DNA from: a virus
Taxonomy: Duplodnaviria; Heunggongvirae; Uroviricota; Caudoviricetes
Strand: one strand, 5' to 3'
Length of the DNA: 4,217 bases
IMG/VR virus record: IMGVR_UViG_2609459830_000018
Coordinates: 1 to 4,217 of that record
The position numbers and the translations under genes were made by a program. Under the pieces are notes generated by a model, which did no database searches, had not been told where the DNA came from, and worked only from the letters and a program-made list of their open reading frames with translations. Positions 1 through 4,217 of the stretch are shown piece after piece; position 1 is the stretch's first letter, and each line of letters begins with the position of its first letter.

Positions 1-280
<280 letters not shown>

Positions 281-513
281 CCACTACACTTTTCAGCGTG
301 GGTTATTGAAGCCTGCAGAAGAAGGCTGGCAACAGATGCAACGCATCTGCGTACGGCCAGCATGACAAATAACGAGAAATGAACGTTCGGTTACAGGAGC
401 AGGTACCCACTGTCCTCCAACAATATTTCATCTTCATACCCGGCGGAACAAGACTTACCCAGCCGGGATGTACAGAATAACAACAGAGTGATAATTAATT
501 TCTGATGAAATAA

Positions 514-840
514 TCAGGGTGCAGAAGGACTAAAGATAAACGTTTTCTTCACGCCTTTACGCGGCCTGTCCTTCTCAAATCGCCATTTTGCCATCGCCTT
601 TACAACCTGCTCATCAAACAGATGGTGCGGCTCTGAACGGATAAACTCAATTCGGGTGACAGTACCATCAGCACCAATATCAAACTTCACATCAACCCGT
701 CCCTTTATATAATTTGCCGCTGCATAGGCCGGATATTGTGGTAATGCCTTCACCAATTGTCGGGGCATATCTGTTTTATGTTGCGTACAGCCCATAACCA
801 GAGAAGACAACAAAATAATTAACGGAAGATTTCTTTTCAT
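514..840 (-). CDS. Outer-membrane lipoprotein consisting of a TonB C-terminal-domain-like fold (about 108 aa)
   Basis: Minus-strand ORF. N-terminus MKRNLPLIILLSSLVMGC has a basic n-region, hydrophobic core and lipobox-like VMGC with Thr at +2. The mature part ...LPQYPAYAAANYIKGRVDVKFDIGADGTVTRIEFIRSEPHHLFDEQVVKAMAKWRFE matches the remembered TonB_C motif pattern (YP..A....I.G.V.V.F.I...G.V.......S.......D..V..A...WRF). Start chosen at ATG 840 (GGGAA 5 nt upstream); in-frame alternatives are ATG 846 and GTG 855. Confidence 0.65.
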   Translation of the reverse strand: MKRNLPLIILLSSLVMGCTQHKTDMPRQLVKALPQYPAYAAANYIKGRVDVKFDIGADGTVTRIEFIRSEPHHLFDEQVVKAMAKWRFEKDRPRKGVKKTFIFSPSAP

Positions 841-856
841 TTTCATTCCCGGCACA

Positions 857-877
857 GATAAGAATAAGTCTTATTCT
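857..877 (-). promoter_or_regulatory. Perfect AT-rich dyad (AGAATAAG-T-CTTATTCT, 861-877) overlapping a candidate -10 (TAGAAT, minus strand 878..873) just upstream of the lipoprotein gene; possible operator, loosely Fur-box-like
   Basis: Directly visible 8-1-8 perfect inverted repeat 11-31 nt upstream of the start codon. By hand alignment the 19 nt at 857-875 (GATAAGAATAAGTCTTATT) match the Fur consensus GATAATGATAATCATTATC at 13 of 19 positions. The -35 is weak. Confidence 0.35.
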
Positions 878-1178
878 AACAATGCCACCCTGTCGGTCAT
901 CAATCCTCTGCTTGATGGCAACGACAATTATCCGACTTAAATCACAAATCAGACACATAACAGGGCTTGCGAGGTAACACATCGTCCGGCTTCTTCCACC
1001 ATCGCACCGGACAGGCGACTATGAGGGGCAACGCCGCGCTCCGTTAACGCGGTAAACCCCGGTGTGTATCGTTTTTGATTATCCCCGCACACTCGCGAAG
1101 AGGAGTCTCCCGGTCGGGCTGCGGTCTCTGTTAATGCGGGAATACGGCGACAATACCGCGCATGGATAATAAGGTCGC

Positions 1179-1403
1179 TCAACACACTGGCTGTAATGCA
1201 GCGGATACCATGCGGCATTTAGCGGCATTCATCGTACACTCAACGGTTAGCTCTTCATTCGTGGCATTCACCTGAAAGGTCCGGGAGTGTAATTGCGTAC
1301 ATTTACCACTGAACGAACCTTCAACAAGAACACGACCACGCTGCAAAATACGGAACAGAATTGTTCCCTGAAAAGGCTTTACGGTTACCAGTAATTTCTT
1401 CAT
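1179..1403 (-). CDS. Hypothetical 74-aa protein, translationally coupled to Rz (ATGA overlap)
   Basis: ATG at 1403..1401 overlaps the Rz TGA stop (1402..1400). GGAGGA sits immediately upstream. No hydrophobic segment and no domain I recognise. Confidence 0.45.
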
Positions 1404-1900
1404 ATATCCTCCGGATAATAAAAAGCCAGCTTAGTGCACTGAGTGCGGATATATTCCTGCGCCCCTTCCAGCTGCTTCTGCATTGTCATCAACCGTTCTC
1501 TGAGGATGAAATAATCCCGTTCAGCGGTGTCTGCCAGTCGGGGGCCGGTTGCATTATCCACGCCGGAGGTGGTGGGGGCTTCACGCACGGAGCCTGGACA
1601 GGTGGCGTTGATCCGCAGGCGCTTACGACCAGCGGCAACGTCAGCGCGAAGAGTTTCATTTTCAGCTCTCGCATCGGCTAATTCCCTCGAGTATTTTGCA
1701 TCGAGCGCAGCAACATCGCGCTGGCGCACCTGCATATCAGTAATGGTTGCGTTCGCCAGCTTCAGTTCACTGGCTTTGTTATCGCGCTGCGCTTTGTAGG
1801 TAATCGCGTTATCACGGTAATGGTCTGTTGCCATCCACAGCGCACCACAGGCCACCAGCAGAATAACGATAAACGCGGAAAGCATTCGGTTTATGTTCAC
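1400..1900 (-). CDS. Rz: i-spanin (Rz), inner-membrane spanin subunit
   Basis: Translation ...[45 protein letters not shown]...VAAGRKRL...[34 protein letters not shown]... is near-collinear with lambda Rz as I remember it. N-terminal TM segment present. GTG start at 1900 overlaps the upstream ORF's TGA (GTGA); ATG 1885 is an alternative. Confidence 0.9.
1489..1674 (-). CDS. Rz1: o-spanin (Rz1), outer-membrane lipoprotein, embedded in the +1 frame of Rz
   Basis: Translation [61 protein letters not shown] has a lipobox (VSAC) and the proline-rich [26 protein letters not shown] core characteristic of lambda Rz1. It lies entirely inside Rz in another frame, the classic embedded architecture. Confidence 0.9.
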
Positions 1901-2028
1901 CCCAGCAGCCCCGACGAAGACAACATCATCCAGGCCATGGAAAGAAAAAGAGCAACCAGCATTAGTGAAAATGAAATGCCGACAATTACACAGAGGATCT
2001 TCGCCAGCGTTATGAGTTTGTCTGACAT
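1897..2028 (-). CDS. Small single-pass membrane protein (43 aa), function unknown
   Basis: ATG 2028..2026 is preceded by a strong SD (GGAGGA, 6-nt spacer). The stop TGA overlaps the Rz GTG start. Product [43 protein letters not shown] is dominated by one hydrophobic helix. Confidence 0.55.
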
Positions 2029-2042
2029 GCTTAATCCTCCCT

Positions 2043-2225
2043 TCACGATTTCAACGCAATGACCAGTTTTGCCAGCCCATACAGCATCGGGGACACAGCA
2101 ACACCGACCGCCACCCACTTAATGGCAAAAGCCAGTGCTCTGCTGATGTCATCAGTTACAGGCGCTTTCAGTTCAAGGCCGTTTTTCATGGTCAACCTCA
2201 ACAGAATTCGTTTATACTTCGCCAT
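2043..2225 (-). CDS. Small membrane protein (60 aa) with basic N-terminal region and C-terminal hydrophobic helix, function unknown
   Basis: ATG 2225..2223 is preceded by AGGGAG. Product [60 protein letters not shown]. Stop is 14 nt upstream of the next gene's start. Confidence 0.5.
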
Positions 2226-2258
2226 GTTCTCCCTTGCCTTACTCAAGGTCAGAAACAC

Positions 2259-2296
2259 AAAACCCCGCTTGGTGCCAACAAACGGGGTTTTTACTT
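2259..2296. terminator. Bidirectional rho-independent terminator between the endolysin gene and the small membrane protein genes
   Basis: AAAACCCCG (2259-2267) pairs with CGGGGTTTT (2283-2291), with an inner TTGG/CCAA pairing. It is followed by a T-run on the plus strand (TTTTTACTTTTATT) and on the minus strand (TTTTGTGTTTCT). Confidence 0.6.
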
Positions 2297-2381
2297 TTAT
2301 TCACTTACGTTTCGCCAGTTCGCAGGATTTCATGTTATCCGCCCGCGTGGCCATGCCTTATTTTTCAGCAAAATATTCTGC

Positions 2382-2915
2382 TTATCTGTCGATACCCCAG
2401 CACGCCAGCGCGCTCTCCTGGTCACGACGGGATACCTGACCGTAGCAGTTGTTTGAACGAATACGGCAGTCTCTGCCACCGTCCTTAATCCACCAGCGAA
2501 TCGCCTCACATGCTCCCCTGCGATCACCAGCATTAATTCGTCTGTAAAACGTCGACGGGAAACACTTACCGGGACCAATGTTGTACGGACAGAATGACGC
2601 GATCCCCGCTTTCTGGGGTTCGGTCAATGGCACTTTGATGTTTTTCTCCACCCATGCCAGCGCCTTATCACGTTCGATGGCGTTAACCTGGTCGCATTTC
2701 TCCTTCGACAACTTCATGCCCGGGACGACAGGTTTACCATCCACCAGAATGGCACCGCGACAGATGGTCCAGATACCCGCGCCATCACGGTATGCCGTGG
2801 TGTGGTTACCTTCCTTTTCATCCAGAAACTGGTCGAGAATGTCAGGCGCAGGCGCACCAGCGGCAATCAGCGCCAGAACGGCAGCCGACAGGCCGTATTT
2901 GATTTTGGTGTTCAT
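2382..2915 (-). CDS. R: Phage lysozyme (T4-lysozyme-like muramidase) with N-terminal SAR (signal-anchor-release) type domain
   Basis: N-terminus MNTKIKYGLSAAVLALIAAGAPAPD is a Gly/Ala-rich weakly hydrophobic segment. Catalytic-triad context E..(8)..D..(5)..T is present in EGNHTTAYRDGAGIWTICRG. Overall collinearity with P1 Lyz / phage 21 R type endolysins as remembered. Paired with a pinholin upstream. Confidence 0.88.
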   Translation of the reverse strand: MNTKIKYGLSAAVLALIAAGAPAPDILDQFLDEKEGNHTTAYRDGAGIWTICRGAILVDGKPVVPGMKLSKEKCDQVNAIERDKALAWVEKNIKVPLTEPQKAGIASFCPYNIGPGKCFPSTFYRRINAGDRRGACEAIRWWIKDGGRDCRIRSNNCYGQVSRRDQESALACWGIDR

Positions 2916-2951
2916 GGATATATTAAATATTCAGCCGCTGTCCCTGGCCCA

Positions 2952-3509
2952 CTAAATACGCACTTTAAGATAAGTCAGCCCCGGATGAAGCCAGTAAGCC
3001 GGCACTTTTTTAAAGGGGGGAGTATTAAAATCACGAAGAAGAGCCTCCCGCACAATTGCATCCTTATCAGCACCACTGGCCAGCGCTTCAATCTCAGCGG
3101 CTACCTGAAGATATCCCATGCAACGGCCAACGCGCTTCATCAGCCCCTGCTTTTTATTGTTCTTCAGGTAATCAATGGCAAATTCAATGAGCTCCTCACT
3201 GTGCTGGTGCAATGGAGGTGTTACTTTCCCATTTTCTGAGATGGTTATTTTCCCGGCATCACCGGATACAACAAAGGATGGCCGGTTACACTCCCATTCC
3301 AGGTTACTGAAATTATCATTATGAATACTGAAACACTCTGAGAGATTTCTGCTCATCACTTTCCGACAATAATCGTCAAACGCAGCAAACTGCTCATCGC
3401 GGCGTTTTTTTTCATCTTCAGAAGGCATCAGCGTCGACAGTTTTTTATTCAGTTCAGCAATTTCATTTTCCAGACGACTGAAGCGCTGATTCATTTCTTC
3501 ATGGTTCAT
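2952..3509 (-). CDS. Hypothetical soluble protein (about 185 aa) inserted between holin and endolysin genes
   Basis: ATG 3509..3507 has GGGGAG 8 nt upstream. The ORF begins 4 nt after the holin stop and ends 36 nt before the endolysin start. N-terminal about 45 residues are charged and heptad-like (coiled-coil-like). No TM segment or signal peptide by eye. No family recognised. Confidence 0.6.
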   Translation of the reverse strand: MNHEEMNQRFSRLENEIAELNKKLSTLMPSEDEKKRRDEQFAAFDDYCRKVMSRNLSECFSIHNDNFSNLEWECNRPSFVVSGDAGKITISENGKVTPPLHQHSEELIEFAIDYLKNNKKQGLMKRVGRCMGYLQVAAEIEALASGADKDAIVREALLRDFNTPPFKKVPAYWLHPGLTYLKVRI

Positions 3510-3512
3510 CAC

Positions 3513-3719
3513 CTAATCTCCCCGGGCAGCCTTGCGACGGTCCTCTCTGATTTTGAAATACAGGTTAGTCAGATACGTCAGCAGGCCAAACAGCAGACTC
3601 CCCAGCACACCTATCGCCACCCACTGGGACGGAGAGACTTTGTCCAGCAGCTGCAGTAACCAGTATCCCGTCCCCACCGCTGACGTGGTGTATGACACAC
3701 CCGTTGTGATTTTTTCCAT
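3513..3719 (-). CDS. S: Class II holin (pinholin), phage-21 S-like
   Basis: Product [68 protein letters not shown] (68 aa, two hydrophobic segments, charged C-tail) is near-identical in pattern to the S21/EssD pinholin as I remember it. Sits directly upstream of the lysozyme and spanins. Confidence 0.85.
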
Positions 3720-3764
3720 CTGATGTATGTCTCCGTCACCGCCGACAGAAAATGAAAGTAAAGG

Positions 3765-3799
3765 AAAACAAAAAGCCGCCAGTGTCGCCCACTGACGGC
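3765..3799 (-). terminator. tR'-like rho-independent terminator in the late leader upstream of the holin
   Basis: On the minus strand GCCGTCAGTG-ggcga-CACTGGCGGC (10-bp stem with one G-U pair) is followed by TTTTTGTTTTCC, about 45 nt upstream of the holin ATG. The position matches the lambdoid pR'-tR'-S arrangement. Confidence 0.55.
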
Positions 3800-3863
3800 C
3801 AACGCCGGGAGCCGTGATTATGGCATTCAGGCTCTGCTAAAAATGCCAGATAACATTCCGGCT

Positions 3864-3872
3864 CCCCCCCCC
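3864..3872. repeat. Homopolymeric C9 (G9 on the coding strand of the late operon) tract in the late leader
   Basis: Nine consecutive C residues read directly from the sequence, between the candidate late promoter and the tR'-like terminator. Confidence 0.9.
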
Positions 3873-3880
3873 TGATTCAG

Positions 3881-3907
3881 GTTATAAATGACACAATATC
3901 TTGACAA
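3881..3907 (-). promoter_or_regulatory. Candidate late promoter (pR'-like): -35 TTGTCA (3907..3902), -10 TATAAC (3886..3881), 15-nt spacer
   Basis: Best sigma70-like hexamer pair on the minus strand between the upstream ORF and the tR'-like terminator. The spacer is short, so the assignment is weak. Confidence 0.25.
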
Positions 3908-3977
3908 CACCCATCACTGTCTGTCAGAAAATGTACTGCCAGATATAAGTATCATGTGAAACCCAACTATCCTTCTT

Positions 3978-4020
3978 AGCCAGTACTTCTCCGACGAAAG
4001 TCAGTACTGGCTGTTTTTTT
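3978..4020 (+). terminator. Plus-strand rho-independent terminator facing into the 3' end of the upstream minus-strand ORF
   Basis: AGCCAGTACT (3978-3987) pairs with AGTACTGGCT (4003-4012), a perfect 10-bp stem with 15-nt loop, followed by G+T7 (4013-4020). The minus-strand side lacks a T-run. Confidence 0.5.
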
Positions 4021-4021
4021 A

Positions 4022-4217
4022 TTATGCTGCCGGTGCATTTATCTCCAGCACCAGACTTTCTATCTCAACGCCATACGCTGCATTTTTTGTAACATCCGTC
4101 AGCGTCAGCGCATTCAGCCCCAGTGTCAGACTGTCTTTTATAACCTGGAATGCCGGGCCAGCCACTCCATTCAGTTTCGGAGTAACCGTGGCACTGCCGG
4201 CGGTGAACACCAGCTCC
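4022..4217 (-). CDS. 3' end of an unidentified protein-coding gene (continues beyond the right edge of the window)
   Basis: Minus-strand frame is open to the window edge, ending ...ELVFTAGSATVTPKLNGVAGPAFQVIKDSLTLGLNALTLTDVTKNAAYGVEIESLVLEINAPAA with stop TAA at 4024..4022. Composition is protein-like and rich in small/beta-favouring residues. It does not look like a Cys-rich Q antiterminator tail. Confidence 0.4.
   Translation of the reverse strand, partial: ELVFTAGSATVTPKLNGVAGPAFQVIKDSLTLGLNALTLTDVTKNAAYGVEIESLVLEINAPAA

Follow-up and report, generated by a model that had tools for sequence, protein, structure and literature searches.

A predicted TonB_C lipoprotein encoded after the lysis cassette

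The stretch of DNA analysed here, referred to below as the window, comprises positions 1 to 4,217 of the IMG/VR virus record IMGVR_UViG_2609459830_000018, from a member of the Caudoviricetes. All phage genes identified in it by listing of open reading frames (ORFs) and by Pfam search lie on the minus strand (Table 1). They include a lysis cassette of the phage-21 type and, following it, a small gene for a protein of 108 residues, in which a predicted lipoprotein signal peptide is joined to a domain homologous to the C-terminal domain of TonB (TonB_C domain). The longest ORF at this position begins with GTG and covers 514–855. The start of the gene was placed at the ATG at 840, because this is the start chosen by PGAP in the 100%-identical locus L001 (WP_000828070.1, 108 residues), because the sequence GGGAA is found 5 nucleotides (nt) upstream, and because 13 related loci, as well as the sister subfamily described below, have ATA in place of an alternative ATG at 846. 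An equivalent ribosome-binding site is annotated in phage 21.

The predicted product opens with MKRNLPLIILLSSLVMGC, followed by TQHK. Its N-terminus (MKRNLPLIILLSSLVMG-C-TQHKTDM) has a basic n-region, a hydrophobic core and a lipobox, LVMGC, which fits the pattern [LVI][ASTVIM][GAS]C by inspection alone. The lipobox cysteine is invariant in all 29 aligned family members. Position +2 is Thr in the window; across the same 29 proteins it is taken by Ser, Thr, Ala or Val and never by Asp, so that sorting to the outer membrane is the default prediction. Lipidation, processing and outer-membrane sorting are thus predicted from the lipobox and the +2 rule, and only about eight residues would separate the lipidated cysteine from the TonB_C domain.

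The domain assignment is clear. The Pfam profile TonB_C (PF03544) matches residues 39–106 with E=5.8e-15 (55.9 bits, against a cut-off of 24.6), and TIGR01352 matches with E=2.5e-15 (56.5 bits, cut-off 27.1). When the PDB sequences were searched with phmmer, enterobacterial TonB C-terminal domains came first, with E values of about 1e-16. An AlphaFold2 model, built with 29 family members as input, has a mean predicted local distance difference test (pLDDT) score of 86, and of more than 95 across residues 28–104. Its top Foldseek matches are 1u07, the C-terminal domain of Escherichia coli TonB, and 2gsk_B, the TonB chain of the BtuB:TonB complex, both with a root-mean-square deviation (rmsd) of 1.1 Å over 81–83 residues and a probability of 1.00. 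The nearest structures include TonB domains that were caught in complexes with transporters (2gsk, 2grx, 6i97), whereas domain III of TolA ranks far behind TonB (ranks 18–28). Both by score and by fold, therefore, the protein is a member of the TonB_C domain family.

The similarity to the C-terminal domain of E. coli TonB (residues ~150–239; 1u07, 2gsk, 2grx) amounts to 39% identity over 79 residues. In the alignment, with the residue numbers of E. coli TonB, the counterparts of Y163, P164, G174, F180, G186, F202, W213 and F230 are identical. Retained in the phage protein are the YP motif, the conserved aromatics, G186 and the strand that pairs with the Ton box (beta3), which is also intact in the aligned family. 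Y215 is replaced by Phe, and the phage protein differs from TonB further by having Leu for Q160 and Tyr for R166.

The protein is not TonB proper. Equivalog models for TonB (NCBIfam PRK10819) match only over their C-terminal ~80 positions, with 50–73 bits against cut-offs of 265–448, and the N-terminus is a lipoprotein signal peptide. The N-terminal transmembrane helix that anchors TonB in the inner membrane, the region for coupling to ExbB/ExbD and the proline-rich spacer are absent. Since the phage protein would instead be held by a lipid anchor in the outer membrane and has no ExbB/ExbD coupling, it should not be able to transduce energy.

A preliminary description of this DNA had already portrayed the gene as a lipoprotein signal peptide fused to a TonB_C-like domain, situated downstream of a lysis cassette, had predicted outer-membrane sorting from the Thr at +2, and had suggested as checks a profile search and a structure prediction, the latter of which could have overturned it. 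The lipobox, the scores above the curated thresholds of both profiles, the TonB_C fold of the model and the default sorting prediction bear this out, as does the location of the gene after holin, SAR (signal-anchor-release) endolysin and Rz/Rz1 genes on the same strand.

A chromosomal lipoprotein family preceded by Fur boxes

An exhaustive HMMER search returned many proteins of about 110 residues with the same architecture and size and 35–52% identity, annotated as 'TonB family protein'. They are encoded in Raoultella, Klebsiella, Serratia, Erwinia, Pantoea, Rahnella and a genome labelled Salmonella. The motifs SEPxHLFD and KWRFExxKP are common to the phage proteins and these chromosomal lipoproteins. 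A neighbour-joining tree built from the domain places the phage proteins among the small lipoproteins, with 44–52% identity, and apart from enterobacterial TonB, where identity is lower (39%, see above). A recent capture of the 3' end of a host tonB gene was rejected on these grounds.

The chromosomal relatives are single genes in ordinary, non-phage neighbourhoods. Adjacent genes encode, in different loci, lacZ/lacI, a DUF1440 protein and an MlrA-type regulator; an SLT_2 transglycosylase and NhaB; an MFS transporter and a LysR-type regulator; or an EAL/GAF protein and a GNAT acetyltransferase.

Of the 15 chromosomal loci, 11 have a match of 14–17 out of 19 positions to the Fur consensus (GATAATGATAATCATTATC) directly in front of the start codon. 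Matches of 15–17/19 are found in loci L085–L089, L091, L093, L096 and L104/L105. In Raoultella lignicola the box is a perfect 9-1-9 palindrome (ATTGATAATTATTATCAAT), in Serratia grimesii it scores 17/19, and in Pantoea agglomerans 16/19, where 18 nt separate it from the true start. In 222 kb of these chromosomal loci, both strands included, only one other site reached at least 15/19. As a positive control, the known Fur box of the Fur-regulated gene stx1 was recovered in phage Lys8385Vzw (16/19, 128 nt upstream of stxA).

The association of this chromosomal family with Fur boxes is new in the present analysis. It suggests that the family is tied to iron starvation, and the chromosomal lipoprotein gene looks like an uncharacterised member of the Fur regulon, for which it is a candidate. 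The boxes thus provide unexpected, indirect support for a link between the family and iron. The phage-borne copies score lower: 13/19 in the window, 10/19 in phage 21 and 12/19 in a Klebsiella phage. The phage promoters and the Raoultella genes nevertheless have the left part of the box, ATTG..AGAAT, in common. Our reading of these sequences is that the family was ancestrally iron-repressed, that the phage protein descends from this chromosomal family of small lipoproteins preceded by Fur boxes, and that erosion of the Fur box in the phage copies has spared the -10 element, with the 8-1-8 dyad of the window now standing at the former place of the box. If so, expression in a lysogen is probably largely independent of iron.

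Promoter and 8-1-8 dyad

The gene is predicted to have a promoter of its own with an extended -10 element. This element is retained as TGTCAGAAT in the sister subfamily (locus L003) and as TAAAAT in locus L004, and the candidate -35 element varies in close relatives (ATGGCC, ATGCCC, ATGATC).

The preliminary description had noticed at this place a perfect 8-1-8 dyad overlapping a candidate -10, and had interpreted it as an operator with a loose resemblance to a Fur box. The dyad is indeed present and overlaps the hexamer TAGAAT, and it is the sole perfect 8-1-8 dyad in the window. On the evidence of the window itself, neither its interpretation as an operator nor the Fur-box reading is supported. 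The dyad is intact in most of about 84 close relatives of the same subfamily (subfamily 1), six of which have one mismatch, and the flanking positions vary about as often as the dyad itself. The right arm is missing, and the -10 kept, in the sister subfamily (L003, L004, phage 21; 71% protein identity), so that conservation favours the promoter and not the dyad. With up to three mismatches allowed, no second copy was found in the 46 kb of carrier phage Lys8385Vzw, immunity region included, and for this reason an operator for a CI/Cro-type phage repressor was rejected. An RNA hairpin was excluded as well, because a loop of 1 nt cannot form and the predicted transcription start lies inside the dyad. 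The match to the Fur consensus, 13/19, is equalled by two other sites in the window and by 44% of shuffled windows; being at the level of chance, it was not accepted as evidence for a Fur box in the phage copy, which by this measure is not a Fur-regulon promoter.

We therefore consider it unlikely that the dyad is a working operator of the gene, bound by Fur in response to iron or by another dimeric regulator. What speaks for such a role is that the dyad is perfect and overlaps both the -10 and the predicted start site, that GATAAG-AATAAG-T-CTTATT has the 6-6-1-6 layout of a Fur box, and that the strong Fur boxes of the chromosomal homologues stand at the corresponding place, with the left part in common. 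This positional homology keeps the Fur idea alive for the phage copy. A perfect 8-1-8 dyad is found in merely 0.3% of comparable 80-nt stretches, but somewhere in 21% of first-order Markov windows of the size of the present one. Taken with the loss of the right arm in subfamily 2 and phage 21, the mismatches in some close relatives and the single occurrence in the carrier phage, this makes it most likely that the dyad is promoter-region sequence and not an operator.

A lysogenic-conversion moron of lambdoid prophages

The gene is a self-contained lysogenic-conversion moron, placed after the phage-21-type lysis cassette of lambdoid prophages. Its limits, at approximately 288 and 990, were set by comparison with collinear phages that do not have the gene, such as the Stx2a phage L100, since in these the similarity to the window ends below ~985. 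The position of the gene is constant: after the lysis cassette, before HNH/terminase genes or cos, and in late-gene orientation. In phage 21 it is found just beyond bor.

Among 5426 complete E. coli genomes, 418 have a 601-bp region with the gene, in every case on the chromosome, where it is annotated as 'TonB family protein'. The sister subfamily (subfamily 2, 71% identical, phage-21 type) is present in 1225 of the 5426, in 1203 of them with at least 99% identity, and the E. coli type strain is one of its carriers. Were no genome to carry both, the two subfamilies together would account for ~30% of E. coli genomes, which is thus the upper bound. With tblastn the gene was also found in 15 records of sequenced phages. 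Phage carriers are Stx1a-converting phages, the Stx1 phage Lys8385Vzw, JLK-2012 (from O55:H7), Perceval and PhiR phages, as well as ev017, where it is annotated 'partial tonB-like membrane protein encoded within prophage CP-933N', the classic lambdoid phage 21, where it is CPT_21_73, 'TonB C-terminal domain protein', and, at 40% identity, the Klebsiella phage described below. The existence of the TonB_C gene is therefore not new, as it has had domain-level annotation since the annotations of EDL933 and phage 21.

The ratio of non-synonymous to synonymous substitution rates (dN/dS) between the two subfamilies is 0.14–0.21, which indicates that the protein is under purifying selection. Within subfamily 2, the alleles P0012, P0013, P0015, P0018, P0019 and P0021 are frameshifted near residue 90, with the result that strand beta3 is replaced by unrelated sequence, and P0012 alone accounts for 130 sequences. 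These alleles may represent decay in cryptic prophages or a recurrent slippage site.

Klebsiella phage ST13-OXA48phi12.4 encodes a 40%-identical TonB_C lipoprotein (L108, 3968–4336) in the same slot after the lysis genes, and a near relative of that gene is found in Raoultella planticola (L090) in a non-phage chromosomal context. More than one move of the gene between phage and chromosome has thus taken place.

Some subfamily-2 prophages have an additional gene between the TonB_C gene and cos, for a secreted protein of 163 residues without a Pfam family (L003, 888–1379, minus strand). A site with a Fur-like score of 15–16/19 lies near by (L003 1473–1497, L004 1579–1603, L107 4536–4560). This site, which is downstream of the TonB_C gene, adjoins cosQ in phage 21 and so probably belongs to cos and is not a Fur box.

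Other features of the window

Table 1. Features identified in the 4,217-nt window, with the basis of each assignment
Feature	Positions	Strand	Basis and remarks
TonB_C lipoprotein gene (108 residues)	514-840	-	Stop 514-516, start ATG 840-838; ORF listing, PGAP, Pfam
Predicted lipoprotein signal peptide with Cys18	787-840	-	Cys18 codon 789-787, +2 residue Thr19; read from sequence
TonB C-terminal domain (residues 26-104)	529-765	-	Order strand, alpha1, beta1, beta2, alpha2, beta3; Pfam, AlphaFold2, Foldseek
Ribosome-binding site GGGAA	846-850	-	5 nt upstream of ATG; read from sequence
Perfect 8-1-8 dyad AGAATAAG-T-CTTATTCT	861-877	.	Overlaps -10 and likely transcription start
Extended -10 element TGTTAGAAT	873-881	-	TG 881-880, TAGAAT 878-873; promoter scan
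Candidate -35 element ATGACC (weak)	895-900	-	16 nt from -10; promoter scan
Moron	288-990	-	In carriers L001 and L002, absent from the otherwise collinear Stx2a phage L100; BLAST
Class II holin (pinholin), phage-21 type	3513-3719	-	Pfam Phage_holin_2_1, E=8.9e-33
ORF of 186 residues between holin and endolysin	2952-3512	-	phrog_1085, unknown function; no Pfam family
SAR endolysin, phage-21 type	2382-2915	-	Pfam Phage_lysozyme, E=1.4e-24
Two small hydrophobic membrane ORFs between endolysin and Rz	1897-2118, 2043-2258	-	phrog_4906, phrog_1115, unknown function
Rz i-spanin	1400-1900	-	Pfam Phage_lysis, E=3.4e-49
Rz1 o-spanin lipoprotein, embedded in Rz in another frame	1489-1674	-	ORF with lipobox VSAC
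ORF of 74 residues directly after Rz	1179-1403	-	Matches only positions 100-172 of the 291-position profile phrog_2571
3' end of IS3-family element, downstream of moron	1-287	+	Pfam rve_2, rve_3; annotated IS3 family transposase in many contexts

The lysis cassette is separated from the TonB_C gene by the 74-residue ORF, which may be a truncated remnant, and a further ~340 nt. In phage Lys8385Vzw the slot of this ORF is taken by a Rha-family regulator. The position of the 186-residue ORF is occupied in L001, a locus otherwise 99% identical, by a gene for a YdfR family protein, so that a second exchangeable cassette exists inside the lysis operon. For the two small membrane ORFs, PGAP annotates hypothetical proteins of shorter length in L001. 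A non-coding run of nine C, which read as G on the gene strand, is found at 3864–3872 upstream of the holin gene and could vary in length.

At the other end of the window, the IS3-family element interrupts a ylcI/ynfO-like gene, of which a remnant is left at ~288–382; the match to the uninterrupted locus L001 starts at 288. The same IS3 end occurs in 2237 of 5426 E. coli genomes.

A possible TonB decoy

TonB-dependent transporters present their Ton box at the periplasmic side. In the FhuA–TonB complex, the Ton box pairs with strand beta3 of TonB at the periplasmic face, beneath the barrel (PMC11658791). Periplasmic fragments of TonB (residues 33–239, 103–239 and 122–239) inhibit the Ton system, and fusion of a TonB fragment to the ompT signal abolishes ferrichrome transport, as reported in a preprint (bioRxiv 10.1101/2020.01.05.895219). 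A phage lipoprotein with a comparable location is also known: Llp of phage T5 resides in the inner leaflet of the outer membrane, binds the periplasmic face of FhuA, and blocks this receptor for phages, colicin M and ferrichrome (bioRxiv 10.64898/2026.03.26.714494).

By analogy, we propose tentatively, with a probability of roughly 0.4, that the lipid-tethered TonB_C domain acts as a decoy, which binds Ton boxes and dampens TonB-dependent entry. The conversion moron would be expressed in the lysogen from its own extended -10 promoter. The mature protein would be lipidated and sorted to the outer membrane, and its TonB_C domain would be held beneath the barrels of TonB-dependent transporters by the tether of about eight residues. 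There it could bind Ton-box segments through beta-strand addition to beta3, with as targets either the transporters or TonB-dependent colicins that are already in the periplasm. Since the domain is unconnected to ExbB/ExbD, such binding would be unproductive and would compete with TonB. With TonB-dependent steps dampened in this way, the lysogen would be partly protected from TonB-dependent phages, group B colicins and siderophore-microcins. That the protein binds Ton boxes, that it competes with TonB and that exclusion benefits the lysogen are steps that we infer.

What makes the decoy plausible is the inhibition of the Ton system by engineered TonB fragments in the periplasm. Being exported C-terminal domains that are uncoupled from the motor (a signal peptide followed by residues 33–239, 103–239 or 122–239), and dominant-negative for Ton-dependent transport, these fragments are the closest mechanistic model for the phage protein. 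They differ from it in being soluble laboratory constructs that were overexpressed, whereas the phage protein is natural, predicted to be lipid-tethered and no more than 39% identical to TonB.

With T5 Llp and with the Cor proteins of phi80, N15 and HK022, the protein of the window has in common that it is a small phage lipoprotein, predicted in its case to reside in the inner leaflet of the outer membrane. The target of Llp and Cor is FhuA, a TonB-dependent transporter that they reach from the periplasm and close to phages, colicin M and ferrichrome. The protein has neither sequence nor fold relationship to them, so that the resemblance would be functional only. Whereas the action of Llp and Cor is confined to FhuA, whose plug and loops they remodel, the Ton box that a TonB_C domain would recognise is generic, so that many transporters could be targets. 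The gene location differs too, as cor of phi80 is found after J and not after Rz. Bor/Iss of lambda and phage 21 are similar in another way, being outer-membrane lipoprotein morons expressed by the prophage from the region between Rz and cos, as is predicted for the present gene. They are unrelated proteins, however, and are encoded on the opposite strand; moreover, phage 21 carries both bor and the TonB_C gene, so the two genes are not alternatives.

Several observations weigh against the decoy. Homologues that have Fur boxes, and would thus be induced together with the Ton system during iron starvation, are odd for a pure inhibitor and suggest a cooperative or modulatory role, which weakens a purely inhibitory reading of the family. 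A constitutive general blocker of TonB in about 30% of E. coli genomes would come at a cost in iron uptake. The many frameshifted alleles of subfamily 2 imply that many lineages can do without the gene. Between the J protein of the carrier phage and that of phi80, alignment is confined to the N-terminal and central parts and does not extend to the receptor-binding C-terminus; without a phi80-like, FhuA-binding C-terminus there is no sign of self-exclusion through a TonB-dependent receptor. The defence models of PADLOC gave no match, and no literature was found on the function of the gene or on outer-membrane-anchored TonB_C lipoproteins, in a search that covered subscription journals thinly. 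A wider claim is that the protein is a natural 'anti-TonB', which by occupying Ton boxes would cut transporters off from their energy source and so provide prophages, phage 21 and Stx1 phages among them, with a generic shield against all TonB-dependent phages, colicins and microcins instead of protection receptor by receptor. Its Fur-box-preceded relatives would then be a hitherto unrecognised built-in modulator of the Ton system in Enterobacterales. This wider claim seems to us less likely than not.

Alternative functions

The best-surviving alternative, which we rate as unlikely, is that an outer-membrane-tethered TonB_C protein, induced in iron starvation, aids or modulates iron uptake by the Ton system. 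It could do so by parking Ton boxes and sparing scarce TonB, by promoting the release of TonB, or by bringing periplasmic binding proteins to the transporters. E. coli, which has no chromosomal copy, would then receive this function from the prophage. If the family is turned on in iron starvation together with the Ton system, a helping or modulating role is more natural than a blocking one, and this is the main argument against the decoy. In favour of this alternative are the Fur boxes of the chromosomal loci, with their near absence elsewhere in the loci and the recovery of the stx1 control. The occurrence of the homologues as single genes in ordinary chromosomal neighbourhoods, and the grouping of the phage proteins with these small lipoproteins instead of with TonB itself, point in the same direction. 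On the other hand, most of the Fur box is gone from the phage copies (10–13/19), no partner gene accompanies the family, and all the free TonB C-terminal domains described in the preprint on engineered fragments were inhibitory, none being stimulatory.

It is less probable still that the protein is an envelope or virulence lipoprotein unrelated to Ton boxes, its TonB_C domain being reused to bind some other partner, for example peptidoglycan, a further outer-membrane protein or a factor of the host. The benefit to the lysogen would then be of the Bor/Iss kind, such as serum or stress resistance. The gene does occupy the classic slot for conversion genes after Rz, adjoining bor in phage 21, it is carried by pathogen-associated Stx1a phages, and the weak Foldseek match to TolA domain III shows that a similar fold can have other partners. 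Against this, the residues that mark a TonB C-terminal domain have been kept, the nearest structures are TonB domains in complex with transporters, and the Fur boxes of the homologues indicate iron and not serum resistance.

A role as a late lysis accessory, namely a spanin-like lipoprotein at the outer membrane, is highly improbable: the gene does match phrog_1267, labelled 'Rz-like spanin' (E=2.6e-42), and directly follows the lysis genes in the same orientation in E. coli and Klebsiella phages, but a complete Rz with embedded Rz1 is already there, the gene has a predicted promoter of its own and lies well apart from the preceding ORF, homologues are found in non-phage chromosomal contexts, and the fold is that of TonB_C and not of a spanin. 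The spanin reading of the PHROG label was therefore rejected. The label, which belongs to the lysis category, is probably a mis-annotation derived from gene position, and it is propagated to TonB_C lipoproteins by PHROG-based pipelines.

Implications

A widespread gene, present in the E. coli type strain, in Stx1a phages and in the textbook phage 21, has so far had domain-level annotation only. It encodes a TonB_C protein with a predicted inverted anchor, which is possibly an exclusion lipoprotein with a new target. If competition with TonB is true, this would represent a new principle of exclusion, in which energy coupling is blocked rather than a single receptor. It would then bear on the host range of therapy phages that use TonB, on warfare by colicins and microcins in the gut, those microcins included that induce Stx prophages, and on the uptake of siderophore–antibiotic conjugates. 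If the protein is instead a helper of iron uptake, the chromosomal family preceded by Fur boxes would be a missing accessory of a system that has been studied for 50 years.

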